Part shown: piece after piece, positions 24,063-52,798 of the stretch
Position numbering within the stretch: position 1 is the stretch's first letter
How the letters are laid out: each line of letters opens with the position of its first letter
Notes under the pieces: generated by a model
What the model was told of the DNA's origin: nothing
Seen by the model: only the letters and a program-made list of their open reading frames with translations
Databases searched by the model: none
Program-made: the position numbers and the translations under genes
Assembly (NCBI RefSeq): GCF_000027125.1
Contig: NC_017626.1
From: Escherichia coli 042
GTDB taxonomy: Bacteria > Pseudomonadota > Gammaproteobacteria > Enterobacterales > Enterobacteriaceae
Length of the DNA stretch: 64,000 nucleotides
Direction: 5' to 3' (one strand)

Positions 24063-25520
24063 TTAATCGTTGCTCTCCTGTATCATATTCGTCGGCGTGC
24101 TAAACAGAAAACGGGTAGCAAAGGCCAATACCACGATGATCGCGACACAAGCCAACGTCCACTCTCCCATCTGAGAAAAGAATCGCTGGTAAGCGGCAAT
24201 TGCCATACCGCTAATTTGCGACTCTGTCGTCTGCTGTGCCACGACGCCTGCCAGCCAGTTGGCGACCGCGCCTGTTGCCAGCATATAAATACCGGTTAAT
24301 ACGCCAGACATTTTCAGACGCGTGATTTGCGCAATCGCCACCGGGTCAATAAAGAGTTCAGCAAAGCCCATTAGCGCCAGCCCGGATACCATCACGCCCA
24401 TTGACGCTTGACCGCCAGCCGCTGCATGTCGGGCATCAAATGCCAGCAACATAAAGCCACAAGCCATCAGCAGTAAGCCAAAGGCAAACTTCAGCCAGAC
24501 GCGCAATGCTGAATTGCCGCGGCTTTCTGGCGACGCCAGCCAGGCCAGAACAACCCCAGCGAGCATCACCGCAATGGCATTCACCGACTGGAATAGTGCT
24601 GTAGGTACTTCAATATTGAATGCCTGACGATTCACAAAGCGATCGATAAACAAGCTGATGGTACTGCCGCCCTGTTGTGCCAGTACCCAGAACAACGTCC
24701 CGACAAACATCAACAATACAATTTGCCAAAGAGCACGGCGGTGTTCGGGGAATTTGATCATCATGCGGGCAATGATTTGTGCTGCAATGAGGCAAACGAT
24801 CGCCAGCAAATATCCGGACCAGTCGTTCTCCAGCAGCAGGGTAAAAAATACTGGGGCTAAACAGAGCATCACCACTAACCAGCTCCATACTGGTAAGGCA
24901 AATTTGACGCTAGTGAGCGCTTTCTTATCCATACTACGCGTGGACTGGAAATGACGATGACCGCTTAAGAAAATCAACAAACCGATAAACATGCCGCCAC
25001 CCGCAAGGGCAAAGCCAACATGCCATCCATACCACTGAGCAGCCAGGCCGCAGGCGATGGGGGCGGCGATAGAACCGATATTGCCTGCAGCATACAGCAG
25101 CGAAAAACCGCCATCACGTCGATGATCGTTCTCGTCGTAGAGCTCGCCAAGCAAACAGCTGATGTTTGATTTGAATAAACCGTAGCCACAAATAATGATT
25201 GCCAGCGCCAGATACAGGCTAAAGGTTGAATTTGTATCAATGCCCAGCACTACATGGCCAAGGGTCATTAACAGCGCGCCGGCAATCACTGCAGTGCGGT
25301 TGCCGAGCAGGCGGTCGGCAAGCCAGCCGCCGAGAATAGGGGTAACGTAAACCAGAGAAGCATATGCGCTGAACAGGCTGATGGCATGGTTATCATCAAA
25401 ACCAAGCTGATGGGTGAGATAGAGAATGAGTAAGGCACGCATGCCGTAAAAACTGAAGTACTCCCAGATTTGGATCGCCACGATATAGTATATCGCGCGC
25501 GGCTGTGAGGGTGTTTTCAT
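24063..25520 (-). CDS. dtpC: Dipeptide/tripeptide:H+ permease DtpC (YjdL), POT family
   Basis: 485 aa; [36 protein letters not shown], a typical POT-family start. Confidence 0.93.
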
Positions 25521-29505: not shown

Positions 29506-31044
29506 TTATTCTGAAGCGAGAAATTTGTCGAGATAAGGTACAACATAAGGAACAGAAGTCTGGAATATACCATTTTCAATCCAGTAAAGGGTGTTTGCCC
29601 CTGGGCGTAAATTAAAGGCGGTGAGATATGCATCAGCTGCTTCCCGGTTCATCCCCTTCATTTCATAAACCTTGCCAAGCAACACATAATTTAGCCAGGA
29701 CATTTCAAGATCAATGCCAGTATTTATCGCCTGGTAAGACTCATCTGTTTTACCTTTTACCAGAGCACTGACCGCTTTTATTTGATATATAATGGACAGG
29801 TTATTCAATTCCGGTAGTGTAACAATGTTATCTATTTCTGTGTTCAGTGCTGCTAATTGTTTTTCATCTAAAGGATGTTGAGAATGGCGCACGATATCAA
29901 CTAATGCTTTTTCTGCTCTCGCGTAGGTAAATTCTGGGGATGATTGAACAATCTCACCTAATAATTCACTGGCACGGTTCAATGATTTATCATCGCCATG
30001 CAGTAAATAATCATGTGCCTGATAAAAATTAGTTAATAACGCACCACGATGAGGCAAAATTTGCTGGAGCATCTCCTGCATTCGTTGTGGCCACGGTTGG
30101 TTTAACGCTTTTGATAAACTCTGGAGTAAATCATTTTGAATCGCCAGCTGATTACCGTTAGTGATGACATAACGTTTATCCAGCATGGTTGAACCATCTG
30201 CATTGTCTACCAATTTTACCGACATAAAGCATTGTTGAGCACGGTATTGGCGCTGATTAACAAACGCAATAGATAATGTTTTACCGGAACTGCTCGGTTC
30301 ATCAATGTTGTAGTTGATTTTGTCATGCACCATAAAGGTGGAGAAGGTGTTAAGTGATGTCGCCACCAAATCACCCACGCCTATCGCGTAAGAGAGCTGA
30401 TACGGGGAACTCCAGCTGTTACAACTTTTATTTACCATATTAATGTCAATATCGCGTGGATTGAGCAAAATACGCGATTTGCTCATCGGAAGACGTGTAT
30501 CAAGACTTGAAAACGCTACCAGTGCTACACAGATACCTAACGACAACAGGAAAAAAAACCATACCCAAAAGGTAGTGAATCGTTTGCTTTTAACTGGGGA
30601 TTGTTCAGGTGGCGTTGCGGTGTTTTGAATGTTAAGACTGTGGGAGGGAGAATCTGTGTCAGGAACCGCCTCTGGTATAGGGGGAGGCGAAGATAGCATT
30701 ATTTCCTCTCCCTCTTCTTCGCTGTACCAGATAACCGGCACCATTAATTTATAGCCGCGCTTTGGTACAGTAGCGATATAGACAGGACTATCTTCATCAT
30801 TATCTTTTAATGACTTACGTAGTTCTGAGATACTCTGCGTCACAACGTGATTGGTGACAATACTTCTCTTCCAGACATTATCGATAAGTTCATCCCTGCT
30901 AAGTACTTCGCCACTGTGTTGAGCAAAGAAAACCAGAAGATCGATTAATCTCGGCTCAAGGGTAAGTTGACGCCCATTGCGGCTAATTTGGTTTATGGAC
31001 GGAGTAACAAGCCATTCGCCAACGCGAACTACAGGTTGTTGCAT
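29506..31044 (-). CDS. cadC: Membrane-bound transcriptional activator CadC (ToxR-like)
   Basis: 512 aa; N-terminal winged-helix (MQQPVVRVGEWLVTPSINQISRNGRQLTLEPRLIDLL), single TM, periplasmic sensor domain. Confidence 0.93.
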   Translation of the reverse strand: MQQPVVRVGEWLVTPSINQISRNGRQLTLEPRLIDLLVFFAQHSGEVLSRDELIDNVWKRSIVTNHVVTQSISELRKSLKDNDEDSPVYIATVPKRGYKLMVPVIWYSEEEGEEIMLSSPPPIPEAVPDTDSPSHSLNIQNTATPPEQSPVKSKRFTTFWVWFFFLLSLGICVALVAFSSLDTRLPMSKSRILLNPRDIDINMVNKSCNSWSSPYQLSYAIGVGDLVATSLNTFSTFMVHDKINYNIDEPSSSGKTLSIAFVNQRQYRAQQCFMSVKLVDNADGSTMLDKRYVITNGNQLAIQNDLLQSLSKALNQPWPQRMQEMLQQILPHRGALLTNFYQAHDYLLHGDDKSLNRASELLGEIVQSSPEFTYARAEKALVDIVRHSQHPLDEKQLAALNTEIDNIVTLPELNNLSIIYQIKAVSALVKGKTDESYQAINTGIDLEMSWLNYVLLGKVYEMKGMNREAADAYLTAFNLRPGANTLYWIENGIFQTSVPYVVPYLDKFLASE

Positions 31045-31624
31045 AATAGAAACTCATTCGAAAAGGGAATGATGCAATGATAATTGCCACAACCTATTTT
31101 TACCATCTATAGATGGGTTTATTTACATATTATTGGTGAATGCAAGACGTTATTTTTACCAGACATAAACTTCTTGATCACATAGTATTGAGAAAGGATT
31201 TTACTGAGAACCAGAAGTAATATTCCTTACCATCAAAATTCATCATCTTTGCCAAAGAAAAATGTTCAGAAAATAATCCATGGAAAATTGTCCGGAGCGC
31301 TTACTATTTTAATGGATTGTTAGTCTTTGCATGAGCAAGCGGACTGATACATTTCTCTTTGTTCTCATTCAGAAAATCTCATCAGTCGGCGTTCAGACCG
31401 GTGTTGTGCTTTATGGATGCGTTACGCTCCTGATGACGTCATTTGACATTCAACAGCATCACGGGGTCGCACGACATTTCACGTCAGTCAGCGCTATAGC
31501 TCAGGAACAAATTTTCCCGAATTGGGATATACCCGCAAAATGCTGGTGTTGTGGGGAGAATTTGGTTGAGTTCGGTAGAAATGATTTTTAGGCAGAACGC
31601 TTAAATTGTGGCGTCCTGAAACGA

Positions 31625-31652
31625 AAAACGGACCTCCGTGGAGGTCCGTTTA
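31625..31652 (-). terminator. Rho-independent terminator next to the tRNA-Phe remnant (likely the former pheU terminator)
   Basis: On the minus strand: cggacctccacggaggtccg stem followed by TTTTT, immediately 3' of the tRNA-Phe 3'-end remnant. Confidence 0.5.
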
Positions 31653-31660
31653 TATGAATT

Positions 31661-31682
31661 TGGTGCCGGACTCGGAATCGAA
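31661..31682 (-). repeat. att-like degenerate copy of the tRNA-Phe 3' end, marking the island boundary
   Basis: tggtgccggactcggaatcgaa matches the reverse complement of the tRNA-Phe 3' end (GGTTCGATTCCGAGTCCGGGCACCA) with one C missing; no D-arm or anticodon arm follows, so the tRNA body is not here. Confidence 0.7.
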
Positions 31683-31792
31683 AATTTCTTTTATCATATT
31701 GATATTAATATAATTTATTTGGTTTGATTAAAAATGTACCCTCAATTATACCCGCAGTCCCTTTTGATATCGAAAGGGAATCACACTCGGGA

Positions 31793-32635
31793 TCAGGCTG
31801 AGAGCACAGAAGGAAAGTACCTGGCTATTATATCGTTAATTCTGTCAATCAGTTCCAGCCTTTTGAAAGTGATGTGTGCAGATCCCTTCTTAAAGTATTT
31901 AATGATGAACATCTCGTCTTCATAGCGCTCTTTACCCTGAACGGACTGGATGTGACCATCCAGACGAATAGTGATGTTTTCCCGGTTGTCGGGGATCGGT
32001 TTGCCGCTGAACAGATGTAGCATTCTTTCCAGGTCGACGAGTCGGTCAGTCTGTTGCCCGGTGATAAGATGAAACCCCCACCGGTCCCACCTCACTAGGT
32101 TGTTGACGATAATTTTACTGCCAAATTTGCAGGGGCAATTGGTTTTGTAATTCCAGTTCAGTCCCCTGAAGACGTTGATCACCCCTCGCTCAAACACCTC
32201 ATCCTTATTCTGGTGTAGTTGTTCAAATGTGCTCAGAATGTTCGCTTCACTGATTTCCGGAAAATTATCGTGCTCCAGTGACCGGTACCATGTATCACGG
32301 GCCTGTGCATCCATTAAGGAAAGCATCCCTGAACGTTGCATCAGGTCACGCCAGATTTCGCGATCGAGATTGCGTGTGATGGCTTTCATTGCGGTTTCCG
32401 GTTTCTCCATCAGCCAGCAGCCGCAGCGAAAATCCTGTTTCATGGCCCAGTCCGGGGCGGCTTTACCGCCAATACTTTCTGTCATTGCTGATATTTCAGC
32501 CAGTTGCCGGATAAGTGTGTCGATTTGCAGCAGTGTACTCTTTCGTACAGCCAGAATGTGGCGGATACTGGTTGAGCAGATAACGTCCGTATGCCCGGTG
32601 ACCACTTCCGGACGGGAGATTGTGATGTCTGACAT
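31793..32635 (-). CDS. Conserved island protein of unknown function (280 aa)
   Basis: Long ORF at the island edge downstream of the yeeW-like gene; no recognisable catalytic motif. Family assignment is uncertain (possibly a DUF-type protein common at the ends of CP4-like islands). Confidence 0.55.
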   Translation of the reverse strand: MSDITISRPEVVTGHTDVICSTSIRHILAVRKSTLLQIDTLIRQLAEISAMTESIGGKAAPDWAMKQDFRCGCWLMEKPETAMKAITRNLDREIWRDLMQRSGMLSLMDAQARDTWYRSLEHDNFPEISEANILSTFEQLHQNKDEVFERGVINVFRGLNWNYKTNCPCKFGSKIIVNNLVRWDRWGFHLITGQQTDRLVDLERMLHLFSGKPIPDNRENITIRLDGHIQSVQGKERYEDEMFIIKYFKKGSAHITFKRLELIDRINDIIARYFPSVLSA

Positions 32636-32719
32636 TATCGGTTTCCCTTTTGGTTTATAAACGAAAACGCCAGCCCTGTTCAGGCTGACGTCAGTGGAAT
32701 GAAGTATGGTGAGTGATAT

Positions 32720-33142
32720 TTACCGGTTCTGGTGCAGAAGCTGCAGATGACGAAGAGTACGGACATCCTCCCGGGCCTGTTCGATACAGGGCAACAGTGC
32801 TACCGAATCCGTTTTATCCTCATCGTTGTCAAAGATAATTCCCGATTCGCAGTCGATATTGTCCTGCAGCCACGCAATGAGGATATCCAGCGCTGTTTCA
32901 GTGGTTAATGGCATCACGCTCTGTATCACTGTATTGTCTTCCGGCAACTGATGAGGGCTGGCAGAAGTCGCCGGTGTTTCGGTAGCGTCACGTTCATTCA
33001 CCACGCGGAGTGAATAACCGTTTTCAGCGACTTTGTTAATCAGTTCAGCGAGCTCAATACCATCGACGTCAACGACAATGCGCCCCATGTTCAGCGCCTG
33101 CGCATTAATGCTGTCGGCTTCCAGCGTCAGGGCCAGTTTCAT
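32720..33142 (-). CDS. YeeW-like protein (140 aa)
   Basis: Immediately downstream of, and overlapping by 4 nt with, the cbtA-like toxin gene, as yeeW follows yeeV in CP4-44. Confidence 0.6.
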   Translation of the reverse strand: MKLALTLEADSINAQALNMGRIVVDVDGIELAELINKVAENGYSLRVVNERDATETPATSASPHQLPEDNTVIQSVMPLTTETALDILIAWLQDNIDCESGIIFDNDEDKTDSVALLPCIEQAREDVRTLRHLQLLHQNR

Positions 33143-33516
33143 TGTTTCGCCCCCGGATGTTTACCCAGGGTAATGTTATTTACCGTTCTGTAGTTGTCGC
33201 GTGTCATCAGGCCGGTTGCCCGGCGTGCCCGGAGAATATCAATGCTGTTGATTAACTGCGACGGGGCTCCTGCGCTGAATCCCGGCTGGTCGGTACGTAC
33301 CAGCGCGTATTTTTCAACGAGAAAGTTCACCGCGTCACACAGTGAAATCCCTGCCTCAATATGCTGCTCAATCACACGTTCATCAGCGAACGGTGTGTCA
33401 TTCAGCGTGAGGCCATAGTGCTGGTCCAGCAGTCGGGTGAGCAGTGTCTGCCAGATGGTGATGGGAGACGGGCAGCCCGATGCCTCCCGTACGTGAGTGT
33501 CGGGTAATGTATTCAT
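33139..33516 (-). CDS. cbtA: Type IV toxin, CbtA/YeeV/YkfI family (cytoskeleton inhibitor)
   Basis: ORF 33139-33621; from the internal Met (MNTLPDTH...) gives ~125 aa with LLDQHYGLTLNDTPFADERVIEQHIEAGISLCDAVNFLVEKYALVRTDQPGFSA, closely matching the CbtA family. Confidence 0.85.
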   Translation of the reverse strand: MNTLPDTHVREASGCPSPITIWQTLLTRLLDQHYGLTLNDTPFADERVIEQHIEAGISLCDAVNFLVEKYALVRTDQPGFSAGAPSQLINSIDILRARRATGLMTRDNYRTVNNITLGKHPGAKQ

Positions 33517-33562
33517 CTTAAGTTCTCTGTAACAGGTGGTTATAAAGGGGAGATATCCGGTG

Positions 33563-33940
33563 TTATACGGTGGTTGCGGGCGCTGCCGGTGTCGGATAAA
33601 CAGCCAGATAAACGTAACCACAGGAGCCGAGGGTGTCGGCTTCGCAGGTCAGCCCTTTCGCATACAGTGTCACGGTATGCTGATGGCGGGGATTCAGTTC
33701 ACCACTGGTGAGCATGAGCTCCAGTTGTTTCATCAGCAGCGGAAAGGCCTGGTCCAGGTGGTATGCATCTGCATCGCTGAACCGGCCTCTGATACCGGCG
33801 CGGTCGGCAAGGTAATGCAACCGGTTACCCTTCTGCACCAGACGTGCCCCGAAACAGGGCGTCACGGTGCAGGGCAGTCCCCACCAGAGGCGGTCGTGAT
33901 TGTCGTCGGGAGGCGTTGTCCCGGGGAGTGTGTCTGACAC
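33563..33940 (-). CDS. cbeA: Type IV antitoxin, CbeA/YeeU/YfjZ family
   Basis: 125 aa beginning MSDTLPGTTPPDDNHDRLWWGLPCTVTPCFGARLVQ; sits upstream of the toxin gene. Confidence 0.85.
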   Translation of the reverse strand: MSDTLPGTTPPDDNHDRLWWGLPCTVTPCFGARLVQKGNRLHYLADRAGIRGRFSDADAYHLDQAFPLLMKQLELMLTSGELNPRHQHTVTLYAKGLTCEADTLGSCGYVYLAVYPTPAAPATTV

Positions 33941-34019
33941 GATAAAGTCCTCACAGAAAATCGGTTAAGAATGGTCCGGTAGTGGCGATAATTCTGCTCA
34001 TCAGAATTCCCTTCCAGAC

Positions 34020-34241
34020 TCAGTTCAGGGTGACGCTCATCAGCCGGACATACGGACCAAAACTGTCCTTACGGCGTTCTGCAAACACAGCCAGTACACC
34101 GGGAATATCCTGCACTTCACGGCCGGTATATGTATCCGTGCTACCGTGCCAGCGGTATTTACCGGTACAGAACGGAAAAAGACGGGATGCAGGATGCTGA
34201 CGGTGAATACGCATGGCTTCACCACGGGTGATGATTTTCAT
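34020..34241 (-). CDS. yeeT: DUF987 protein, YeeT/YpjJ family
   Basis: 73 aa; MKIITRGEAMRIHRQHPASRLFPFCTGKYRWHGSTDTYTGREVQDIPGVLAVFAERRKDSFGPYVRLMSVTLN, near-identical to recalled K-12 YeeT. Confidence 0.8.
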   Translation of the reverse strand: MKIITRGEAMRIHRQHPASRLFPFCTGKYRWHGSTDTYTGREVQDIPGVLAVFAERRKDSFGPYVRLMSVTLN

Positions 34242-34327
34242 GAGAATAGTCCTCCTGAATGTGAAAGTAAGAAACAGCTGAGAAAGAGAAACTGAAGTGA
34301 TATGAAGGTGATTGTGACGGTGACGGG

Positions 34328-34819
34328 TTAAAGCAGACCGTGTTCCGCAAAGGAGAAAACCTGGCTGCCACCGACTATCAGATGGTCCGGTACCCGGATA
34401 TCAACCAGGGCCAGTGCCTGTACCAGACGCTCAGTGATAAGGCGGTCTGCCTTGCTGGGGGGGACTTCACCGGACGGGTGATTGTGCGCCAGCACCACGG
34501 CAGCGGCATTGTGGTACAGGGCGCGTTTAATCACTTCCCGGGGATGGACTTCCGTACGGTTGATGGTGCCGGTGAAGAGGGTTTCACCGGCAATCAGCTG
34601 ATTCTGGTTGTTCAGATACAGCACCCGGAACTCTTCACGCTCCAGTCCCGCCATGTTCAGAATCAGCCATTCCCGTGCCGCATGCGTGGAGGTGAAGGCC
34701 ACGCCGGGTTCATGAAGATGGCGGTCCAGGGTTTTCAGGGCCCGCTGAATGAGGCTGCGCTCGCCGGGTGTCATCTCTCCGGGCAGAAAGGAAAGTTGTT
34801 GCATTGTGCTTCTCTCCAT
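34328..34819 (-). CDS. RadC-like JAB/MPN-domain protein (YeeS/YkfG/YfjY family)
   Basis: JAMM motif region HNHPSGEVPPSKAD; 163-aa ORF, true start possibly 5 codons in. Confidence 0.85.
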   Translation of the reverse strand: MERSTMQQLSFLPGEMTPGERSLIQRALKTLDRHLHEPGVAFTSTHAAREWLILNMAGLEREEFRVLYLNNQNQLIAGETLFTGTINRTEVHPREVIKRALYHNAAAVVLAHNHPSGEVPPSKADRLITERLVQALALVDIRVPDHLIVGGSQVFSFAEHGLL

Positions 34820-35293
34820 TCAATCGATGATGCGCATAATGGCGCTGCATTCCGGATGCTGCAGGGCGTAATCCCGCAGCCGGTAATAATGGACCGTCAT
34901 GGCATAACACTCCGTACGACAGGCATGATGACTGTACGTCATCAGACAGGCGGCAATGCCGGCGGCTTCCGGGCTCATTTCAGCGCGGTTACCGTTCATG
35001 GCATTGAACAGTACCCAGTTTTCGCCATCATCGTCATCCGGTTCGGGTGCCATAAATGCCCCGCCGTTGTTCAGGGTGTACAGATTCCAGATACCACCGC
35101 AGTAGTTTTCGCAAAGACGGTCCATCCAGCCGAAGACACGGGGCTCCAGGGTCACCCACTGTGGAATGAGGCCAAAGTGCTGCGGCCAGAAACTGATACG
35201 TTGTTCATCAGGGACGAGGCTGGCAACCAGTTGTTGCAGGTCAGTCTCCGGTGCTGAGACCGAAGAGGTGGTGTTCTGAGACAATGTTTTCAT
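34820..35293 (-). CDS. Antirestriction protein (YfjX/YafX/KlcA-ArdB-like)
   Basis: 157 aa; typical position upstream of radC in CP4-type islands; acidic DDDDGENW stretch. Confidence 0.78.
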   Translation of the reverse strand: MKTLSQNTTSSVSAPETDLQQLVASLVPDEQRISFWPQHFGLIPQWVTLEPRVFGWMDRLCENYCGGIWNLYTLNNGGAFMAPEPDDDDGENWVLFNAMNGNRAEMSPEAAGIAACLMTYSHHACRTECYAMTVHYYRLRDYALQHPECSAIMRIID

Positions 35294-35594
35294 ATGTGAA
35301 ATCCTTGTAGTGTGAATAAATGCGAGGAAGTAAAGGTCGGGTGGCTGATAACATCACGTTCATCACTGACCGTGAGACCCGGTAATATCAGGGATGAATG
35401 ATATTCGGCTGAAATTCCGGACAGCCGTACGCGTAACCGTTCCGGTCACAGACGGATGGCCTGATGCCATTGCCTGTACTCAGTCTGCACAGACTGATTT
35501 CTCCGGGACGGTAAAGCAGACGGGTATACCAGGCGCACAGGTCATCATCAGAAATGGAACGACATCCCGGCAGCGCCTTCAGGGACAGGCTGCA

Positions 35595-36413
35595 TCAGCG
35601 CAGGCTCTCCAGCAGCGTTTCCGCCATCACCCACAATGCGCGGTTGAGCTTAATATCGGTGTCGATGCTGTGAATGGCACGGGTGTGGATACGTTTTCCT
35701 CTGGCACTGCGACCGGAAATCCCGCCTTTCAGCATATTCTCCTGGATGGTCTGATAAGTACTCCACAGGTCCTTACCGTAATCCTCCCTGCGTCGCGGTG
35801 TCAGAATGTCAGCGGTGGTGACGGGCTGATGTTCGTCACCATAACGGTAAGTCAGTGCCGCCTGTGCCAGCGCCTGGCGTGCCGGTGGCGGCAGAATCAG
35901 CGACTGCATGGCATCACGCTTTTCCTCAATCCGGTCAAAAACCCCCACCACCTCGTAAGCCCCTTCAATGACTCTGTCCACCACATTTCCCCGGTGCGGA
36001 ACACGCACTTCCCCCAGAGACTGACCACAGACGCATCCGTTCTGGCAGACGAACCTGAAGTAACCCGGCAGCATCTGGTAGCTGGAGGTACCGTCATGAG
36101 AGTTGAGCAGAATAATTTCAGGGAAATGTTCTCCGTTTATCTCTCCGGCCCGCCGCAGACGCAGCATGTGTTTTGTGTATCCCCGGCGGCCCGGGTCGCG
36201 CACACGGGTCTGGCAGGCGAAGAATGGCTGAAAGCCTTCCCGCTGCAGGCTTTCCAGTACGGTGATGGTGGGGATGTACGTATAGTTCTGGCTTCGGGAC
36301 GTGTGTTTATCTTCCCCGAAAATCCCCGGCACATAGTGCATCAGTTCTTCGTGTGTCAGCGGACGGTCACGGCGTATCTGGTTCGCATAACCAAAACGAC
36401 TGGCTAGTCGCAT
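35595..36413 (-). CDS. DUF932-type protein (YafZ/YfjQ-like)
   Basis: 272 aa; conserved position in the CP4-like backbone; no catalytic motif recognised. Confidence 0.65.
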   Translation of the reverse strand: MRLASRFGYANQIRRDRPLTHEELMHYVPGIFGEDKHTSRSQNYTYIPTITVLESLQREGFQPFFACQTRVRDPGRRGYTKHMLRLRRAGEINGEHFPEIILLNSHDGTSSYQMLPGYFRFVCQNGCVCGQSLGEVRVPHRGNVVDRVIEGAYEVVGVFDRIEEKRDAMQSLILPPPARQALAQAALTYRYGDEHQPVTTADILTPRRREDYGKDLWSTYQTIQENMLKGGISGRSARGKRIHTRAIHSIDTDIKLNRALWVMAETLLESLR

Positions 36414-36512
36414 AATTTGCTCCTTATCGGTGGTTAAGATTTACTGGTGTAATAAATGAAAAAGCCACGTCTCCCGGAGAAGACGCGGCCTGATGGGTGA
36501 AATGAATGACGT

Positions 36513-36746
36513 TTATTGTCTGAGAAGACCGTCACTGGCGAGCCGCGTATTAAGCACCTTTCCGGCATCGGGTTCAGAATTCCGGCAGCGCCAGCGTCGC
36601 TGACCTTCCGCGTTGCGGATAACCCGACGGAAATGCATTCCCGGGTCATCCTGGATAAACACATTGCGGTAAGCTGTTATGACAGCAACCGCCTGCCCGT
36701 ATGAGAAAGATCCTTCAGCCAGGACATACTCTGTGTAACCCGGCAT
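36513..36746 (-). CDS. Small hypothetical protein (77 aa), possibly YkfF/YfjS-like
   Basis: Short ORF in backbone position; weak support. Confidence 0.35.
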
Positions 36747-36824
36747 ATCTGTTTTCTCCTGATAAATAAAAAGCCTCTGCCACGCGTTGTGACAGAGGCT
36801 GAAGCATGAAACTGACTTCAGGGA

Positions 36825-37280
36825 TCAGTTAACGTTTTTTCCGGAAACGGTAATTAGCAGTGGATGGTAGTCCTGGGGATCGAAAACCGATAACGGCAGA
36901 CTGACACGATGGCCGTTACTTTCTTCAGTTGCTTTAATGATTTCGGTTGTGGCGACATTTTCCACGCACTCCGTTTCCAGAAATGCGTCTGTGGTTCGCG
37001 TGGCATTACTGTCACCAAAAGCTTCCGTTTCCATTTTTCTGGTCACCAGCGTCTGACCATATTTGTCTTTGAGTTGCAGAGTGATGGTGAGGGGGCCAAA
37101 CCCTTCATCGTTTCCGCCATTATCCAGCCGGAACTGGTAAGCACAAATATTTCCCGGGAGCCATATCGTATCTGTATTGCGTATACTGATGTAACGTTGA
37201 TCCTGTGCCCGGAGTGGGGCAGACCACGTTAACCCCAGAATGAAGGCGGTAATCATGCAGGTTTTGAACAGGTGAATCAT
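36825..37280 (-). CDS. Secreted/periplasmic protein with signal peptide (151 aa), YfjT-like
   Basis: N-terminal hydrophobic signal MIHLFKTCMITAFILGLTWSAPLRA with an AQD cleavage-like site. Confidence 0.55.
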   Translation of the reverse strand: MIHLFKTCMITAFILGLTWSAPLRAQDQRYISIRNTDTIWLPGNICAYQFRLDNGGNDEGFGPLTITLQLKDKYGQTLVTRKMETEAFGDSNATRTTDAFLETECVENVATTEIIKATEESNGHRVSLPLSVFDPQDYHPLLITVSGKNVN

Positions 37281-37355
37281 GGTATTTACCTCTCTGAATC
37301 ATGACGATGACACTGACAAGTCAGGTGATAAAACGTAAAAGGTGCAGAATACTCG

Positions 37356-39878
37356 TTATGCCGGTAACTCCGGGGGTAATGCTTCTTCCAGCCGGTTAAC
37401 CATATTGCCGAGATGGGATGCATCATATTCCATGACGGGGCGTTGCCTGATGATACTGACCACCAGTGGTTTGATTAACATATTGGTCGCGGCCCGTTGT
37501 TGTATACCGGCGGCGAAAATGATCTCCAGAGCATTCTGATCGATAACACGGGCCAGATTCGCGTTCAGATTTTCTGTTTCATGTCCGGTCAGCAGGAAAC
37601 TGCCGGCAAGCCATGTCACCTGTTCCTGAATCATTGCCAGAATTTTGACGCGATCTTCTTCAACCAGCGCTCCGGCAATTTTTCCTGATACAGCGGAGGC
37701 AATCATTCCCCCCAGAACACCGCCAACCACACGCCCTGTCAGTGCACCAAATGGTCCCAGTGGACTGAACAGTATCCCGCCCGCCACTGACCCGACAGCT
37801 CCACCTGCCACACCGGAAGATGCCACGGCAAGATTCCTGATGAACTGCGTACCGGAGATCCGTCCCCGCAACATTTTGATCATGTCAGGGCCGGTTGTGA
37901 CAGCTACCAGTGCCAGAGATGTCACCAGCGTACCCTTCATCACTTTGTTCAGGGCACTGATATTTCCTGTACCGGTCCCCTTCTGAAGAGCCAGTCGGAC
38001 AGTCGGACTGGCCGTCGAAAAATCAATGTGCTTCAGCATACCCTGAACAACACTGAGCCGGTGAAGTTGCTGGGTTGTGACGTAGACAGCCAGTGTGCGG
38101 GTGAAGGTTTTTCCTGCCTGGACAGCAGCTGTCTGCAGGGCAGCATCGCGATCGCCGGTGCTGAGCCAGAAGACCGATGCCGTCAGGGCAAAACTGATCC
38201 CTCCGGCCGCCAGACTGACAACCGAACCCTCGGCAATATCATAAGTGACCGATTCGATGGTCCCGAACCGGGTGATATTACGGGCCTGGGTATAAGTCAG
38301 ATGTCCCCGACGAATCAGCCGGGACGCTTCTGCGGGATCGGTTACACCAGGTACTTTACCTTCGCGGATCTTATTCCTCATGGTTTCAACAGCGCCGGCA
38401 TACTGATCACGGGGGACTTCCAGTTGCATGGGGCCATGATTTCCCATGTAACGATACTGTCCGTTTTGTCCGTCGAATGCCGCACCGACGCTACGGGCTG
38501 CAGTTGAACAATATTTCGTCTGGATCTCTGTTCCGCTGACCAGTCTGTCTGCTCCATTTCTGGCATTATTATCACCGAGGATCCGTGCGTTTTTCAGACG
38601 GACTCTGTCGACAATATGGTTTCCCCGTTCAGCGGCAAACCCATGTCCCTGCCCTCCGGAAGCAAACATTTTCTCATTTGTACTCCAGGTTTCCGGCAGT
38701 TTCATGAGAATCAGACCATTCGCCGTTGCATCGGAAATAAAACTGTTGTAGGGGCGTTCATAAATTTCCTGACACAGTGTTTCTGTTTCGCGACAAAGAG
38801 AGGAGCAGTACCATTCCGGATCCGGCTTATGATTTTCCGGGGCATGATGTACTTCTGTCAGCCCGCAGGAGGCACAGATACGAAGCTCATCCACGTGATG
38901 GAATGATACAAAACGGCGACCTTCTGAAAAGGGATACCAGTCACCGCCGTCCAGGCAACGATCGAGAAAATCGTCATTCGCTTCCGGTGATAAATTCAGG
39001 CGGTTCCGGAAGAGGGTTTTCAGTTCATCAGGGGTAAATGACAGGCTCTCTCTCAGCTTTTCGTTGAAACCCGCCATGTTTCTTTCATACCAGGCATTGT
39101 CCAGTAGCCAGTTTCCGTCTGCCAGTTCAAATTCCCTCAGTTCTCCCCGGGAAATCCGTTGTGAAATGAGTGTCAGCCAGATGCGCTCCGTCAGCGTTTC
39201 AGGAAGGCTGTAATCGTTTTGCAAACTGCTCAGCCATGATTTACTGTTGAGCACCGGTTGTTCTTCCAGTGTCTGGCTGATGGCACTGGTCAGTCTTTTC
39301 AGCGCCTGGATCTGGCTGGCCGCCCATAGCAGCGTCACTAATGCAGCCAGCCAGTACAACAACCCGCCCCACCACATCAGTGAGGGTGAAATATCGAACT
39401 GCAATGCGATCAATGGTGCGTATGCAGAACACGCCATAAGGAAAAAGGCAGTATAAAAACAGCAGTAATACCCGTTAATTTCCTTGCTGATATCTTCAGG
39501 TGTGAGCCCGTTCTGCTGAATGGTTCTTATCTGCACGGGAAGAGCCAGCAGACCAGCGGCGAGAGCGGTGGTCAGAATAAATTTTACAGAGTCAAAAGTA
39601 TGAGCCTCCAGTGCGATATGTTTACCATCAAGTCCCCACATGAAGCTGATGATCATTCCGGCAATCGTCAGAAATACGCCTGCCAGCCAGCGAATATGGA
39701 ATAACCGGGTTATGCGTTCAGTGATATAGCCAGCCAGTAAAGCCGGACCGAACAGACACAGCAATATGAACCCTGCCAGCGCAGACGCTGTGCTGGTTAA
39801 TGCTCTGAACAAAAGGCGAAGAATGGCAAATCCTGCGATCAGCAGAATCAGCGCGCCGACTATCTGTAACATAGTCAC
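37356..39878 (-). CDS. YeeR-like inner-membrane protein (840 aa) with Gly-rich C-terminal segment
   Basis: Multiple N-terminal TM helices, Cys cluster (CASCGL...CSSLC), C-terminal Gly-zipper-like stretch GVAGGAVGSVAGGILFSPLGPFGALTGRVVGGVLGG; immediately downstream of flu as yeeR is in CP4-44. Confidence 0.7.
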   Translation of the reverse strand: MTMLQIVGALILLIAGFAILRLLFRALTSTASALAGFILLCLFGPALLAGYITERITRLFHIRWLAGVFLTIAGMIISFMWGLDGKHIALEAHTFDSVKFILTTALAAGLLALPVQIRTIQQNGLTPEDISKEINGYYCCFYTAFFLMACSAYAPLIALQFDISPSLMWWGGLLYWLAALVTLLWAASQIQALKRLTSAISQTLEEQPVLNSKSWLSSLQNDYSLPETLTERIWLTLISQRISRGELREFELADGNWLLDNAWYERNMAGFNEKLRESLSFTPDELKTLFRNRLNLSPEANDDFLDRCLDGGDWYPFSEGRRFVSFHHVDELRICASCGLTEVHHAPENHKPDPEWYCSSLCRETETLCQEIYERPYNSFISDATANGLILMKLPETWSTNEKMFASGGQGHGFAAERGNHIVDRVRLKNARILGDNNARNGADRLVSGTEIQTKYCSTAARSVGAAFDGQNGQYRYMGNHGPMQLEVPRDQYAGAVETMRNKIREGKVPGVTDPAEASRLIRRGHLTYTQARNITRFGTIESVTYDIAEGSVVSLAAGGISFALTASVFWLSTGDRDAALQTAAVQAGKTFTRTLAVYVTTQQLHRLSVVQGMLKHIDFSTASPTVRLALQKGTGTGNISALNKVMKGTLVTSLALVAVTTGPDMIKMLRGRISGTQFIRNLAVASSGVAGGAVGSVAGGILFSPLGPFGALTGRVVGGVLGGMIASAVSGKIAGALVEEDRVKILAMIQEQVTWLAGSFLLTGHETENLNANLARVIDQNALEIIFAAGIQQRAATNMLIKPLVVSIIRQRPVMEYDASHLGNMVNRLEEALPPELPA

Positions 39879-39992
39879 TCCGTGATGAATATCATGTTAT
39901 TGTGAATGCCAGTGAATGTGGCACTGAAATGTTTTCCCCCGTCCGGGTCCCGGTCATGATGACCGGAACCACAGAGAGGCAATGCAGAATTA

Positions 39993-42900
39993 TCAGAAGG
40001 TCACATTCAGCGTGGCCTGACTGTTATAACCTTCAGCGCTGCTGCCGCTGACGCTGTGGGCATAACCGGCCTGAACGCCCAGGGTGATATTTTCCCGGAC
40101 ACGGGCTTCCAGTCCGGCCTGCAGATCCAGTGAAGTGCCATTCTGTGAGGGAGAGAACGTCATCCCGCTGCCTGCGGTGGAGGTCCCCACACGCATATCA
40201 CCCCGGGAGCTGAAGGTGCGGATAACGGAAGGCTGTACCCACCAGTTCACCGGCAGTTCACGCACACTGTGTTTTGCACTGTCACGCAGGGGGGCACGGG
40301 ATGAGGTGCCTTCACCAAAGGTCATATCGTTGTGGCTGCCCAGACGGAAACCGGCACGCACATGTTGTGCACTGCCATGCCCGAACTTCACATAACCGGC
40401 GTTGTCCTTACCGTCATCCAGCGAAAGCCCCTGCCAGGTGTACTGCAGCCGTGGCTCCAGCATCAGGTTGTCAGTAATACTGAAGGGCAGACCGGTTTCC
40501 AGTGAGCCCAGCCAGCCCCAGCCCCGTGCGCGGAAGTCGTTATTGCCCGATGACGCTTTCATACTGTGGCGGGTTCCCTGTGCCACAATGTCAGCCCACA
40601 GGCCGGAGGAGGTGTGTGTCAGGTTCATATATCCGCCCAGGCTGCCGGCATCATCCCGGACCGTGCCGGCGCGGGAGCCGTCATCATCCTTAACATCAAC
40701 GGAAGAATGGCCTGCAGCACCATACACTCCTGTCGTCAGTGACATACCGGCGACCTCTGTTCTGAGCAGGTCACCCTCCAGACGGACGAAGCCATAGCTG
40801 CCGCTGCTTTCCGGCGTGGCCCCACGGGCAATACCGCCGTTGTTATCGTGACCGAGATGGCCGCCCTGAATGCTGAGACGGACGCTGTTATTTTCACCGT
40901 TTACACCGGTCTGATGGCTGCGTGAGCCTGCCAGAATCCGGTCATAGTCCATTGCCTGTGTCAGCATGGAGGCGTACAGGGGGACTTCAGCACGATAACG
41001 TTCTTCACTGCGCAGATACCAGCTCTCATCACTGTCCCGGTTGAGGGTGTAGTTAAAGGCCCCGGCCTGCAGCATATTCCCCTGGACAAAAGCCCCTTCC
41101 TCCGTGGTGGCACCGTTAATGGCCTCAACCACCTGAATACCCTTACCGGTGGTCGCCAGCCCCGTACCACTGTTGCCGGCGTTCACCAGATTCAGGATGG
41201 TTTTTCCGGTTGCCCTGCCACCGTCAATGACCAGTCTGTCAGCATTGTTCTGCGCCATATCCGGGCGTACACGCAGGCTGATGGTGCCATTCTGCCCGTT
41301 CAGGTTTTTCACCTGCAGGGTTGCCGGTACGAACTTCCCTGTGCGGGTGGAGGTGAAATGAATCTGTCCGGCATGGCTGAGGTCATCCACCACCGACTGC
41401 ACCGTGGCGTTATCAGGGATATTCCAGGTGGCACCGGATGTCAGGGTGACATTCGTGGGGTCAATGGCACCGTTCAGCACTGTGCTGCCGGTCAGCTTCA
41501 GGGCCGTGCCGCGCTGAGCGATGACATCCGTGGTGACGGTACTGTCGTTCAGCGTCAGCGTGCCTTCATTCAGGTTGACGGTTTTCTGGGTGAGTGTGGT
41601 GTTGCTGACAGTGAGTGTGCCACTTCCTGATTTTTCCACCCTGCCGTTACCGGTAAGAGCGCCTCCCTGCAGGAGTGCATCACCTTCACGGATGGTCAGG
41701 GTATCGTTATTCACCGTTTTCCCGGAAAGGGTAAGCGTGGCACCGTTATTCAGCGTGGTGGTGCCCGCCAGCGAGCCCCCTCTGGCAGTGAACAGTCCGC
41801 CATTTACCGTGGTATCCGTGGCCGTATCACCGGCGTTCAGCGTGAATGAACTGCCTTTTTCCAGCATCAGGGCATCCGCCTGACCGCCCCCGATACGGAA
41901 TGCCGTTCCGTCGCTCCGGGTACCACTGACAGCGGCCCCGGAATCGGCCAGCAGTACACCGCCATTCCCCATGGATACGGTGGTGGCGGCACCACCGTTG
42001 CGGACATCCAGCGTTCCGCCATCATCCACACGGGTATTAGTGGCTGTGTGTCCGCTCAGCACATCCAGACGTCCGCCATTTTCCAGTACGACATTATCAG
42101 CCTTACCCGCCAGAACGGAGAATGCTCCCAGGCGGTTTGTGCCGGTGACGGTTGCAGCTGTGCTGGTAACCAGTGCACCTCCCGTGTTCTGGGTGACATC
42201 AGACGCTTTACCGCCGGCATTCACCTGCAGCTTTCCTTTCTGGTTGATGGTGGTATGCGCGGTAGTTCCTCCTTCCTTAATCACCTGCCAGCCCCCCTCG
42301 TTAATTACCGTGTTCAGCGCAAGTCCGTATTTGTGCACATACTGGTTTCCTCCCTCCAGCCGGGTGTTATGTGCCTCGCCGTGTACCGTCTGGTCACCGC
42401 CGGCGTAAATGAGGGTGTCCCGTGCCATCCCCGAAGACCAGATAACCTGCCGGCCATTTTTGTTGATGGTGGTGGATTCAGCCGTCCCTCCGACCATCTG
42501 ACCGCTGGACACATTTTCAGACTCCGGACCACCTTCTGCACCGGTGTTGACGATGGTTCCGGTTGCCTGCCCGCCATGTTTAATGGTCTGGTAGCCAGAC
42601 TGGTTAATCACCGTTCCGGATGCACTGCCGCCTGCATGTATCCATTGTTCACCACCGTTAAGGACAGTACCGTAAGCCTGCCCGCGCAGATTCTGTCCTC
42701 CACCGGCACTGATAACCGTATCCGTGGCACTGCCACCTGCCATGACATCCTGCAGACCGTTTGCGGTGACCGTGGTGTTTCTGGCAGTGCCACCCCGGGC
42801 TATCTGCTGACCGCCGGTGTTGTCATCAGAGTCCGGCCCCAGCTCAAGCCCGGTACTGACAGTCACGCCATCAGCTGTTCCGGATACAAACTGGTTGTCA

Positions 42901-43112
42901 TGGTTTACCAGTGTTCCGCCATTCACTGTTTCACCCGGGTGCACAACGATGTCAGCAGCCAGCACCGGGAGTGACGTGACTGCGGCAAGAGACAGTGCAA
43001 CCGCCACACCGCCACGTTTACCCCGTGCGCGGGCCAGTTCGGAGGCAACCACGAAAGCGCCCGTAATGTGATTCCATACCAGCCTGTAGCAGGTATTCAG
43101 ATGTCGTTTCAT
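39993..43112 (-). CDS. flu: Antigen 43 (Flu) self-associating autotransporter adhesin
   Basis: ORF 39993-43118; from the third Met (MKRHLNTCYRLVWNH...) gives 1039 aa; extended signal peptide, beta-helical passenger repeats, C-terminal beta-barrel ending ...ATLNVTF. Confidence 0.93.
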   Translation of the reverse strand: MKRHLNTCYRLVWNHITGAFVVASELARARGKRGGVAVALSLAAVTSLPVLAADIVVHPGETVNGGTLVNHDNQFVSGTADGVTVSTGLELGPDSDDNTGGQQIARGGTARNTTVTANGLQDVMAGGSATDTVISAGGGQNLRGQAYGTVLNGGEQWIHAGGSASGTVINQSGYQTIKHGGQATGTIVNTGAEGGPESENVSSGQMVGGTAESTTINKNGRQVIWSSGMARDTLIYAGGDQTVHGEAHNTRLEGGNQYVHKYGLALNTVINEGGWQVIKEGGTTAHTTINQKGKLQVNAGGKASDVTQNTGGALVTSTAATVTGTNRLGAFSVLAGKADNVVLENGGRLDVLSGHTATNTRVDDGGTLDVRNGGAATTVSMGNGGVLLADSGAAVSGTRSDGTAFRIGGGQADALMLEKGSSFTLNAGDTATDTTVNGGLFTARGGSLAGTTTLNNGATLTLSGKTVNNDTLTIREGDALLQGGALTGNGRVEKSGSGTLTVSNTTLTQKTVNLNEGTLTLNDSTVTTDVIAQRGTALKLTGSTVLNGAIDPTNVTLTSGATWNIPDNATVQSVVDDLSHAGQIHFTSTRTGKFVPATLQVKNLNGQNGTISLRVRPDMAQNNADRLVIDGGRATGKTILNLVNAGNSGTGLATTGKGIQVVEAINGATTEEGAFVQGNMLQAGAFNYTLNRDSDESWYLRSEERYRAEVPLYASMLTQAMDYDRILAGSRSHQTGVNGENNSVRLSIQGGHLGHDNNGGIARGATPESSGSYGFVRLEGDLLRTEVAGMSLTTGVYGAAGHSSVDVKDDDGSRAGTVRDDAGSLGGYMNLTHTSSGLWADIVAQGTRHSMKASSGNNDFRARGWGWLGSLETGLPFSITDNLMLEPRLQYTWQGLSLDDGKDNAGYVKFGHGSAQHVRAGFRLGSHNDMTFGEGTSSRAPLRDSAKHSVRELPVNWWVQPSVIRTFSSRGDMRVGTSTAGSGMTFSPSQNGTSLDLQAGLEARVRENITLGVQAGYAHSVSGSSAEGYNSQATLNVTF

Positions 43113-43304
43113 CAGCATTTCCTTAATCAGAGTGAGGGTGAATAAAAAAGCCGGTATCCACAGATGTGGATACCGGCAGGTAAAGGGTTACAGTGCCGGA
43201 GGTCCGGCTGACGGAAGTTTCTGACGTGTGGCTCTGTTGTTCCCTGAATCTCATGTCTGTGTGTATCTGCGCACGTTGCTAACAGGAGTTATTATTAGCA
43301 TGAC

Positions 43305-43340
43305 GATCGATATAAACGATCGATAAAATAGGTATCGATC
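43305..43340. promoter_or_regulatory. Ag43 phase-variation switch: three clustered GATC sites (Dam/OxyR)
   Basis: GATC at 43305, 43318 and 43337 within gacGATCgatataaacGATCgataaaataggtatcGATCg, ~190-230 bp upstream of the flu start codon. Confidence 0.7.
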
Positions 43341-43445
43341 GTTTTATTCTATTATCAGGCTATTGCACGGACAAGAGAGACAGTAACGAAAACAGCGCTT
43401 TTGTGAGCAGACTCAGAGGCAGGGAGGACATCATCCACAACAGGT

Positions 43446-48717: not shown

Positions 48718-49333
48718 ACGTTCGGTAATCACAGCGGTATTGTGCCGGGCGTTATATGCCTGTGATTCTTTTGCTCTTCTCTGGTTGCTGCAAAGCTGAA
48801 TATGTTCCTGTTGTTGGAGGCCGAGGTAATACCGGGAACGTTAAGCGGTATAGCGACAACAAAGAATTCGAAATCAAAAGGGAATGGTGTACGGAGGTGC
48901 GGGCGGTAATGGGCCGATTTTCGGGCATTACCGACCTCTGCTGAGGTTTTCTCGTATTAGCCGGGGATCCGGTGCGTTGAATATTGACGGCATAAACCGA
49001 CAGGCAGAGTCAGCACCAGCAGTGACGTCAGTAGACAGCGCCGACGATCGGTATTCCGGTAATGGGCAACATCCGTATTATGAGTAATTGCCTTACCACA
49101 ATCCCTGCACACCGTTTTGTGTATCACCATAGCTCCCTCCTCACAGTCTTATCTGTAACCGGTTTTTGGCATTAAAAAAACAACGCTGAAAATTCAGCCG
49201 TCAGTCCGGAGACGACAATCGGGTTATCACAGAGTGCCTGAGATATTGCCCGGTTGGAGGTCACTTCAGGGACTCTGCGCATTTTTTACGGCGTGGTTAT
49301 TCCGTATGAACGAAACCATACGGAGATTTAACC

Positions 49334-49903: not shown

Positions 49904-50064
49904 GCCCGACAGACGACTTATCTGACCTTAGTGTGATGACGTGTTCACAGCGACCACACTGATTTTCCCTTCTGAGACTGAACTGAAAACCGCCATTCAC
50001 ACCCTGACCACGCTGCCCGTACCGGGACGGCTGTTGCCTGCGTGTCGTCTGGCGGCTGAGGAAT

Positions 50065-52745: not shown

Positions 52746-52798
52746 GATCGATGTATCTGTTATATTGAGATTTTTCAGATCTTCGTCCTATAATGATC
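52746..52798 (+). promoter_or_regulatory. T6SS promoter candidate: TATAAT -10 flanked by three GATC sites in an AT-rich Fur-box-like context
   Basis: GATC at 52746, 52778 and 52795; TATAAT at 52789-52794 abuts the third GATC; ataatgatcaaaatta resembles the Fur-box core; ~80 nt upstream of tssB. Confidence 0.6.

Follow-up and report, generated by a model that had tools for sequence, protein, structure and literature searches.

Positions 32720-35293 of the 64,000-nt stretch of Escherichia coli 042 DNA analyzed here (the window) very probably carry, in intact form, the backbone cassette that is conserved at the distal end of CP4-44-type islands. Such islands are inserted at tRNA genes and carry P4-like integrases, and the same-strand genes of the cassette apparently form one transcription unit. 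The initial annotation had read this segment as a compact toxin-antitoxin, YeeT, RadC-like and antirestriction module, and six intact, co-oriented genes were confirmed on the minus strand, with each identification backed by profile searches, solved-structure matches and the RefSeq annotation of identical DNA. All six genes were full length against their Pfam models with scores far above the cutoffs, no frameshift or internal stop was found across them, and dN/dS values of 0.05-0.40 indicated purifying selection on every gene. Gene identities, intactness and order, the overlap of two genes, the selection on them and the position in the island were observed directly and are described below. Two long antisense ORFs on the plus strand (34340-35257 and 35394-36407) were rejected as shadows, because the minus-strand genes have profile matches and low dN/dS. 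Of the six cassette proteins, only the RadC-like one has a curated NCBIfam model. The cassette is ordinary and already known, with identical DNA annotated in public records; as a textbook island module that E. coli carries in multiple copies, it is of small significance and its uses are modest.

The first gene of the cluster (34820-35293, minus strand) encodes a 157-aa ArdB/KlcA-type antirestriction protein. It matched PF03230 with an E value of 8e-37 (125.8 bits against a cutoff of 25) and a PHROG anti-restriction family with an E value of 4.5e-63, and RefSeq names the product of the identical DNA "antirestriction protein". Full-length matches were also found to the solved structures of ArdB from E. 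coli CFT073 (2WJ9, E 7.5e-107) and KlcA (2KMG, E 2.3e-22). The likeness to these proteins is one of sequence, and by homology the ArdB-like protein would blunt type I restriction. Members of the ArdB family have been reported to counter type I systems in vivo but not in vitro.

The second gene (34328-34804, minus strand, 158 aa) is RadC-like, with the JAB/JAMM metalloprotease fold of the YeeS/YkfG/LfgB family. The protein matched PF04002 (E 4e-44; 150 bits against a cutoff of 22.1), TIGR00608 (147.7 bits against 133.85) and the PDB entry 2QLC (E 7e-25). The JAMM metal-binding motif (E ... HxHx7Sx2D) is intact, with TEVHPRE and HNHPSGEVPPSKAD visible in the translation, and the dN/dS of the gene was 0.05-0.08. 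The longest ORF starts at 34819 (34328-34819); the true start is likely 34804, as in RefSeq, with GGAGAG upstream. The JAB protein would be a metalloprotease-fold enzyme. Its CP4-57 paralogue LfgB, which is 71% identical, degrades the MqsA antitoxin (PMC10846083); this protease activity has been reported for LfgB only, and MqsA regulation, like MqsA cleavage, was demonstrated for the CP4-57 copy only.

The remaining genes of the segment begin with a yeeT-like DUF987 gene (34020-34241, minus strand, 73 aa; PF06174 E 3e-39, covering positions 1-65 of the 65 in the model), which has AGGAGG 8 nt upstream of its ATG and a dN/dS of 0.05-0.13. The cbeA (yeeU) antitoxin gene (33563-33940, minus strand) starts with GTG and encodes 125 aa, which matched PF06154 (E 8e-55; 184 bits against a cutoff of 27) and the solved structures 2INW (E 4.5e-84, residues 1-125) and 2H28 YeeU (E 1.6e-76). 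It lies immediately upstream of the cbtA (yeeV) toxin gene (33139-33516, minus strand, 125 aa) on the same strand, and the spacer between them is 46 nt long and unstructured. CbtA matched positions 2-112 of the 112 in PF06755 (E 5e-61; 204 bits against a cutoff of 25), while searches of solved structures returned no match for CbtA or for the yeeW-like ORF that follows it.

The mechanism of the toxin and the roles of its residues have been worked out in the K-12 paralogues (PMC5624674), for which toxicity and rescue were also shown (PMC5371832). The CbtA encoded here would bind FtsZ and usually also MreB, leading to a block of cell division and elongation, and CbeA would neutralize it in the type IV manner, by acting on the cytoskeletal targets with no sequestration of the toxin. 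Growth arrest, and rescue without toxin binding, are known only for the K-12 paralogues and are predicted for the present pair from its sequence. Phe65, an FtsZ-binding determinant conserved in CbtA, YpjF and YkfI (PMC5624674), is kept in CbtA here, where the segment DAVNFLVEKY aligns to K-12 CbtA without gaps. At position 15, the toxin alignment showed a Cys here versus an Arg in K-12 CbtA, and the N-terminal 27 residues of the two proteins differ. Arg15 is an MreB-binding determinant of K-12 CbtA, and the R15C substitution abolishes MreB binding (PMC5624674); with Cys at this position, the dual-target mechanism may therefore shrink to FtsZ only. However, YpjF naturally has Cys15 and yet binds MreB (PMC5624674). 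The toxins of both CP4-57 and CP4-6 carry Cys15 like the toxin here, and Arg15 is specific to the K-12 CbtA allele and not family-defining. With this natural Cys15 allele, one could examine whether the CbtA clade can do without MreB binding.

The assignment to a CP4-44/CP4-57-like backbone was borne out when the segment was aligned to the K-12 elements, and CP4-44 provided the closest paralogue set. K-12 CP4-44 is collinear with 32888-34780 at 86% DNA identity, and its yeeS-yeeT-cbeA-cbtA-yeeW genes share order, strand, spacing and the ATGA-type stop-start overlap of cbtA and yeeW with the cassette. The protein identities were 97% for YeeS, 93% for YeeT, 94% for CbeA, 86% for CbtA and 76% for YeeW over its 62 surviving residues. 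Upstream, collinearity with CP4-44 was also found through yeeR, flu/Ag43 and IsrC at 91% DNA identity, although CP4-44 and the island described here occupy different chromosomal sites. K-12 CP4-44 has no equivalent of 34781-38351 of the window (3.57 kb), a stretch that comprises the 3' third of yeeR, irmA, the DUF905 and DUF932 genes, the antirestriction gene and the first yeeS codons, and the cassette thus shows the state of K-12 CP4-44 before this deletion. Since CP4-44 is without the antirestriction gene, the comparison for this protein was limited to YfjX/LfgA of CP4-57 (74%) and YafX of CP4-6 (65%).

The CP4-57 set lfgA(yfjX)-lfgB(yfjY)-ypjJ-yfjZ-ypjF and the CP4-6 set yafX-ykfG-ykfH-yafW-ykfI share the five-gene architecture, antirestriction gene included, but their protein identities to the cassette were only 60-82%, and neither K-12 locus has a yeeW-like gene after the toxin. 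The toxins of both sets are toxic, are neutralized by their antitoxins and interact with FtsZ.

An overlap of 4 nt between cbtA and the yeeW-like ORF (32720-33142, minus strand, 140 aa) had also been reported, and it was found as ATGA at 33139-33142, in ...AAACAATGAAACTG..., where the cbtA stop codon TGA occupies 33141-33139 and the ATG of the next ORF occupies 33142-33140. This overlap is kept in five other loci, and translation of the yeeW-like ORF would be coupled to the stop codon of cbtA. In a single frame, the ORF contains DUF5983_N (residues 4-57; PF25638, E 7e-28, 96.5 bits against a cutoff of 27), a linker and a DUF957/ANF00264 segment (residues ~76-140). The C-terminal domain of DUF5983, PF19419, had no match in the ORF even at an E value of 10, and the corresponding segment is missing in the alignment. 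On sequence grounds the ORF is a short form, in which DUF5983_N is joined to DUF957/ANF00264, and its dN/dS was 0.14-0.30. Long-form loci (STEC435; Aec77/Aec78) likewise lie directly after cbtA with the same overlap, start with DUF5983_N and end with DUF957. However, they contain about 275 bp extra that encode the PF19419 C domain, and their DUF957 is out of frame, 11 nt past the DUF5983 stop, whereas the short form here is without PF19419 and reads straight through. An origin of the short form by simple deletion from the long form was not supported, since the ~70-nt middle aligns poorly to the long form and is common to K-12.

It could be argued that the yeeW-like ORF is not one gene: either a distinct DUF957 gene of 65 aa would come after a truncated DUF5983 pseudogene, or the second half of the ORF would be a spurious translation (AntiFam ANF00264). 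RefSeq/PGAP splits the identical DNA into a pseudogene and a DUF957 gene in strains 55989, H3 and HH35, and STEC435 has a 162-aa DUF5983 protein with both the N and C domains ahead of its separately framed DUF957. Moreover, the C-terminal half has no match in the current Pfam, and AlphaFold2 confidence was low for the whole 140-aa ORF (mean pLDDT 55.7), with values of 66.8 (pTM 0.36) for the N-domain alone and 74-83 for the C-terminal two-helix segment. We nevertheless regard either reading as unlikely. The frame is open over 140 codons. Many clusters, some with hundreds of members, retain the 140/137-aa form at 79-92% identity, and the C-terminal half showed a dN/dS of ~0.10-0.19 in the 140-aa frame. 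Single-ORF relatives (P0128, P0125 and P0130, 46-54% identity) hold both halves with different linker lengths, and the L012 locus has a 118-aa version that again overlaps cbtA. K-12 YeeW is the same short form, which a stop codon shortens to 64 aa and which carries a deletion in its DUF957 part, and a 2026 preprint holds ANF00264 to be real, confidently folding and always beside cbtA/cbeA. The 140-aa ORF is probably a real translated protein, and this natural in-frame fusion bears on the current annotation dispute over whether DUF957/ANF00264 is real or spurious. As a much more tentative proposal, the ORF may be the translated third protein of the cbeA-cbtA unit, with DUF5983_N fused to the helical segment ANF00264 (formerly DUF957), coupled to the toxin stop and modulating the pair, for instance in the role of adaptor, regulator or additional antitoxin. 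In that case, CbtA/CbeA would comprise three components, and the AntiFam entry, like many RefSeq annotations of a pseudogene plus DUF957, would be in error.

The six genes, ardB-like, radC-like JAB, yeeT, cbeA, cbtA and yeeW-like, appear to form one transcription unit. An intrinsic-terminator-like hairpin with an 11-bp stem followed by a T-rich tail (32666-32692, minus strand; fold z-score -2.4) closes the unit and is also present after K-12 yeeW. The internal spacers of the cassette are short and unstructured, and no terminator-like structure was found inside it, the first strong hairpin being the one after the last gene. The paralogous yfjXY-ypjJ-yfjZ-ypjF set has been described as one operon, lfgABCDE (PMC10846083), and has been handled as such in experiments. 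A promoter scan, whose total count was below the shuffle expectation, found no sigma-70-like site on the minus strand within the 301 nt that precede the antirestriction gene, suggesting that the transcription start may lie upstream of the neighboring DUF932 gene. This gene of the YfjQ/YafZ family (35595-36413, minus strand; PF06067 E 1e-51) has the same orientation, encodes a protein 74-75% identical to K-12 YfjQ and YafZ, and is possibly co-transcribed with the cassette; the nearest terminator-like site upstream on the minus strand is at 36491-36462. No Rfam family was detected inside the module, either at the gathering threshold over the whole window or at E<=1 over 31000-37400, and a repeat search of 31000-37400 gave nothing but short, chance-like matches.

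Several E. coli genomes (55989-like strains) have RefSeq-annotated loci that are 100% identical to the segment over all 2574 nt, which is far beyond chance. Of 5426 complete E. coli genomes, 4980 contained some version of the module; the median was 3 copies per genome and the maximum 15. The same gene order and 4-nt overlap recur in independent elements, including L012, in which CbeA and CbtA are far more diverged. Relative to the L007 copy, the dS of individual genes ranged from 0.10 to 0.39, a four-fold spread that is expected if copies exchange segments. The initial annotation had suggested the module as a marker of the island lineage, but it would serve poorly in this respect, because it is multi-copy, its dS varies four-fold and the identical island is found at a different chromosomal locus in strain 55989.

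By homology, the cassette would be expected to provide toxicity, rescue and antirestriction activity from co-transcribed genes, and it might have some role in keeping the island. The contribution to island maintenance that had been put forward for it is plausible. To our knowledge, there has been no test of island maintenance for the CbtA/CbeA family, and neither post-segregational killing nor a lower stability of CbeA relative to CbtA is known to us to have been demonstrated. A different role, doubtful but deserving consideration, is that of an establishment or anti-defence operon that acts mainly when the island (or co-mobilized DNA) enters a new cell, similar to the leading-region genes of conjugative plasmids, and not as an addiction module. 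The antirestriction, JAB and CbeA-family proteins would then guard the element as it enters, with cbtA/cbeA having only a side role; the two explanations overlap and are not mutually exclusive. The ArdB/KlcA gene comes first in the cassette, as such a role would suggest, and DNA-level relatives of the radC-like gene's JAB core occur on about 1,300 plasmids, 1,231 of the 1,347 matching plasmids being predicted to be conjugative. The whole cassette is rare on plasmids, however, with 16 records covering at least 80% of it, and none of eight proteins tested matched a defence-system family in PADLOC. In a screen of K-12 proteins, an F-like type IV secretion system translocated only 32 that are chromosomally encoded, YfjX, CbeA, YagB and YfjZ among them, but deletion of yfjX in the donor left the SOS response of the recipient unchanged (PMC11288057). 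Sequenced phages almost entirely lack the module (1 fragment record among 50,697), which is consistent with an establishment function and argues against a role in a phage life cycle, the label of cryptic prophage notwithstanding.

We also considered whether the cassette might be what is left of an old element, decaying and without function. The K-12 copies are eroded, with the 3.57-kb loss in CP4-44, the truncated yeeW and a shortened ypjJ, and a deletion in strain H3 abuts the antirestriction gene. In the present copy, however, the six ORFs are intact, full length and under purifying selection, and 100% identical copies occur in unrelated strains at two different chromosomal sites, which makes such decay highly improbable. 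The reading of an intact, conserved backbone cassette is thus preferred.

The island sits at the tRNA-Phe gene pheU, beside cadC. Its junction with the chromosome is a 22-nt direct repeat (31661-31682, minus strand) that reproduces the 3' end of tRNA-Phe (pheU/pheV) except for a 1-nt deletion and was a unique match in the window. Collinearity with K-12 (cadC, yjdQ and the pheU terminator) stops at this repeat, and identity with the 55989 island starts there, with a different flank in 55989. A search with the canonical 25-mer of the tRNA-Phe 3' end at up to 3 mismatches gave no match because of the 1-nt deletion, and the repeat was located by reading and realignment. No tRNA gene was found in the 64,000-nt window, and therefore the integrase end of the island lies beyond position 64000, while the cassette locates the distal end of this tRNA-Phe island. 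The module had been placed at the island edge. It is indeed near the edge, with the tRNA-Phe repeat ~1.06 kb away, but it does not contain the last island gene, since a DUF4942 gene (31793-32635, minus strand, 280 aa; PF13708 E 4e-66) lies between. This terminal gene is outside the module and yet belongs to the same conserved backbone, and it comes after the yeeW-like gene in the window as well as in STEC435, L011 and L012. The DUF4942 protein showed weak similarity to a PHROG DNA methyltransferase family (E 8e-15).

The six-gene module occupies 32720-35293 of the window, and every significant ORF in this interval lies on the minus strand. It encodes a 157-aa antirestriction protein (34820-35293), a RadC-like JAB protein (34328-34804), a 73-aa DUF987/YeeT protein (34020-34241), CbeA (33563-33940), the 125-aa CbtA (33139-33516) and a 140-aa yeeW-like ORF (32720-33142), and all six proteins matched Pfam over full model lengths with E values of 7e-28 to 5e-61. 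For the radC-like gene, the RefSeq start was adopted, which has GGAGAG ahead of it; the longest ORF extends to 34819. The cbeA gene starts with GTG as in K-12. A search of solved structures matched CbeA to the YeeU structures 2INW and 2H28, the JAB protein to 2QLC, and the antirestriction protein to ArdB (2WJ9, full length, E 7.5e-107) and also to KlcA. The JAMM motif HNHPSGEVPPSKAD is intact in the translated JAB protein, and no frameshift was found in any of the six genes in the window sequence. Pfam, the solved structures and RefSeq thus upheld the gene identities proposed in the initial annotation, as did the sequence ATGA at 33139-33142, shared by the cbtA stop and the start of the yeeW-like ORF, for the reported 4-nt overlap. 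The observation was confirmed and its interpretation was supported with minor corrections. The module is already known, and only two points are mildly new, namely a toxin allele with Cys15 and an in-frame short form of YeeW.

Spacers of 15, 86, 79 and 46 nt separate the first five genes, and the last junction is the 4-nt overlap. The three longer spacers were folded, with z scores of +1.1 to -0.95 that indicate no significant structure. Within the 84 nt past the last ORF is a GC-rich hairpin with an 11-bp stem and a T-rich tail (32692-32666, z -2.4), and K-12 yeeW is likewise trailed by it. The nearest upstream terminator-like site on the minus strand is at 36491-36462, ahead of a DUF932 gene. 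A scan of the 301-nt gap ahead of the antirestriction gene detected no consensus promoter. This DUF932-antirestriction spacer (35294-35594) is also 301 nt in locus L007 and about 90 nt in STEC435 and locus L009, and the extra ~210 nt contain no convincing ORF, promoter or Rfam match. The CP4-57 paralogues have been handled experimentally as a single operon, lfgABCDE, with MqsA as the repressor and LfgB (YfjY) as a protease acting on MqsA (PMC10846083).

The alignment to K-12 suggested in the initial annotation identified CP4-44 as the nearest relative (YeeS 97%, YeeT 93%, CbeA 94% and CbtA 86%), while the CP4-57 and CP4-6 paralogues are 60-82% identical to the window proteins. As a correction to the CP4-44/CP4-57-like backbone described in the initial annotation, K-12 CP4-44 has no antirestriction gene. 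DNA comparison showed that CP4-44 is collinear with 32634-34780 and 38352-43998 of the window and lacks exactly the intervening 3.57 kb (34781-38351), which contains the 3' third of an 840-aa YeeR-like gene, irmA, DUF905, DUF932, the antirestriction gene and the 5' end of radC/yeeS. Therefore, K-12 lost this content and the window carries the undeleted form, and the 510-aa YeeR and 148-aa YeeS of K-12 are deletion products. In strain H3 (24494-24544 of that locus), an island deletion abuts the antirestriction gene upstream and brings it next to a tssH that lacks its 5' part; the six-gene cassette persists there without its usual upstream region. A full-length Rfam match to the IS102/IsrC small RNA (43137-43342, minus strand, 255 bits) immediately precedes the Ag43 gene (39993-43118), an arrangement shared with K-12 CP4-44.

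Several complete E. coli genomes contain loci that match all 2574 nt of the module at 100% identity, and RefSeq labels these loci antirestriction, RadC, DUF987, CbeA and CbtA; about one position is changed in strain 55989, and identity is 99.9% in O104:H4 outbreak strains. Matches were found in 4980 of 5426 complete genomes, at a median of 3 and a maximum of 15 places per genome. The module is multi-copy and mosaic, and is therefore a weak marker of the island lineage, for which it had been considered useful. The order antirestriction-RadC-X-CbeA-CbtA-overlapped YeeW-like was found in all copies compared, and a more diverged element (L012) has the same order, with GTGA as the overlap, followed by DUF4942. 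Nei-Gojobori dN/dS was calculated between the window and three to four other copies per gene (two for the yeeW-like ORF), drawn from STEC435, two further E. coli loci and K-12. The values were 0.05-0.08 for the radC-like gene, 0.05-0.13 for DUF987/yeeT, 0.13-0.25 for cbtA, 0.14-0.30 for the yeeW-like ORF (C-terminal half ~0.10-0.19), 0.18-0.36 for the antirestriction gene and 0.19-0.40 for cbeA.

Residues 28-81 of the window CbtA, including Phe65, are the same as those of K-12 CbtA, whereas the N-terminal 27 residues are different and position 15 is Cys. The F65S mutation abolished FtsZ binding in all three K-12 toxins. R15C in K-12 CbtA specifically abolished MreB binding and changed lemon-shaped cells into filaments, although the protein was still toxic; in YpjF and YkfI, where Cys15 is the natural residue, C15R did not alter behaviour (PMC5624674). 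Because Phe65 is kept and position 15 is Cys, these mutant effects make a block of division via FtsZ the safest reading for the window CbtA, and leave MreB uncertain as its target.

RefSeq splits the yeeW-like ORF into a "DUF5983 pseudogene, missing C-terminus" and a 65-aa "DUF957" gene starting at internal Met76, but it is a single unbroken frame of 140 codons. Pfam recognized only DUF5983_N (residues 4-57) and no domain in the second half. AlphaFold gave pLDDT values of 55.7 for the whole ORF and 66.8 for the N-domain, both too weak for fold searches, with moderate confidence only in two C-terminal helices. DUF5983 was already given as the constant downstream partner of CbtA in an mBio survey (PMC10790755). 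A June 2026 preprint describes a DUF5983 whose C-terminus is incomplete and after which another protein is called separately. It argues that AntiFam ANF00264, catalogued as a spurious frameshifted phage protein, is real, with a confident dimer fold and a constant position beside cbtA/cbeA, and it proposes a programmed frameshift. From this description and the shared genomic context, we infer that the second half of the window ORF is ANF00264. In the long form (STEC435), ~275 bp of extra sequence encode a PF19419 domain and DUF957 lies in another frame, 11 nt past the stop, whereas the short form in the window needs no frameshift. Many clusters keep the short form at 140 or 137 aa (79-92% identity), and some of these clusters have hundreds of members. 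Both halves, joined by variable linkers, are also present in single-ORF relatives of 134, 121 and 118 aa (46-54% identity), one of which overlaps cbtA in L012, where PF19419 is encoded by its own gene at another place in the operon. K-12 YeeW (64 aa) is this short form, cut off by a stop codon and with part of the second half deleted. Judged from these sequences, a genuine two-part protein, produced via coupling to cbtA, is the most likely product of the short form. In L012/L013 (GCA_000496755.2), a standalone 106-aa PF19419 gene (3774-4094) occupies the usual DUF987/yeeT slot, and the short two-part form comes after cbtA.

Sequenced phages essentially lack the cassette in spite of the "cryptic prophage" label; a single 3.2-kb fragment record was the exception. 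The whole cassette was found in only 16 plasmid records, and the radC-like JAB core gave weak DNA matches on ~1,300 plasmids, most of them predicted to be conjugative. The contribution to island maintenance raised in the initial annotation is putative; the cassette may also act in establishment after transfer, beside or in place of an addiction role, since YfjX, CbeA, YagB and YfjZ were 4 of the 32 hits in a screen for translocation of K-12 proteins through an F-like conjugation system (PMC11288057).

The module was placed at the island edge, which is approximately correct. From cadC (29506-31044), the window remains collinear with K-12 across the integrase remnant yjdQ, the terminator hairpin of pheU and the final 22 nt of that gene. 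Homology ends at this pheU 3' stretch, TGGTGCCGGACTCGGAATCGAA (31661-31682), which has one base deleted and occurs once in the window. Strain 55989 (L001, ~10950-11080) has the same island end and variant repeat on another flank, adjoining yghD, and its identity with the window starts exactly at 31661, which is therefore the island junction. Going by the K-12 map, the yghD-side flank is presumably the pheV site. The module begins ~1.06 kb inside the island, and the DUF4942 gene (31793-32635), the terminal island gene, intervenes. ARAGORN found no intact tRNA in the window, which would put the integrase end past position 64000.

The same island with the same 1-nt-deleted tRNA-Phe repeat is found on the cadC/pheU side in the window and on the yghD, presumably pheV, side in 55989 and HH35, so one lineage occupies either of the identical tRNA-Phe genes. 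The integrase remnant (31304-31463) between cadC and the repeat, a pseudogene (yjdQ) in K-12 and labelled a frameshifted tyrosine recombinase in strain H3, belongs to the conserved chromosome flank, not to the island. DUF4942 follows the yeeW-like gene in all examined loci that extend far enough, and its protein weakly resembles a PHROG family annotated as DNA methyltransferase (E 8e-15). An Rfam match to the enterobacterial sRNA STnc630 (2787-2952, plus strand, 181 bits) falls within core-genome sequence of the window. The island, which corresponds to that of 55989-like enteroaggregative strains, also carries a type VI secretion cluster at ~49000-64000 on the plus strand, with tssH, tssC, tssK and an OmpA-family gene named from the annotation of 100%-identical DNA.
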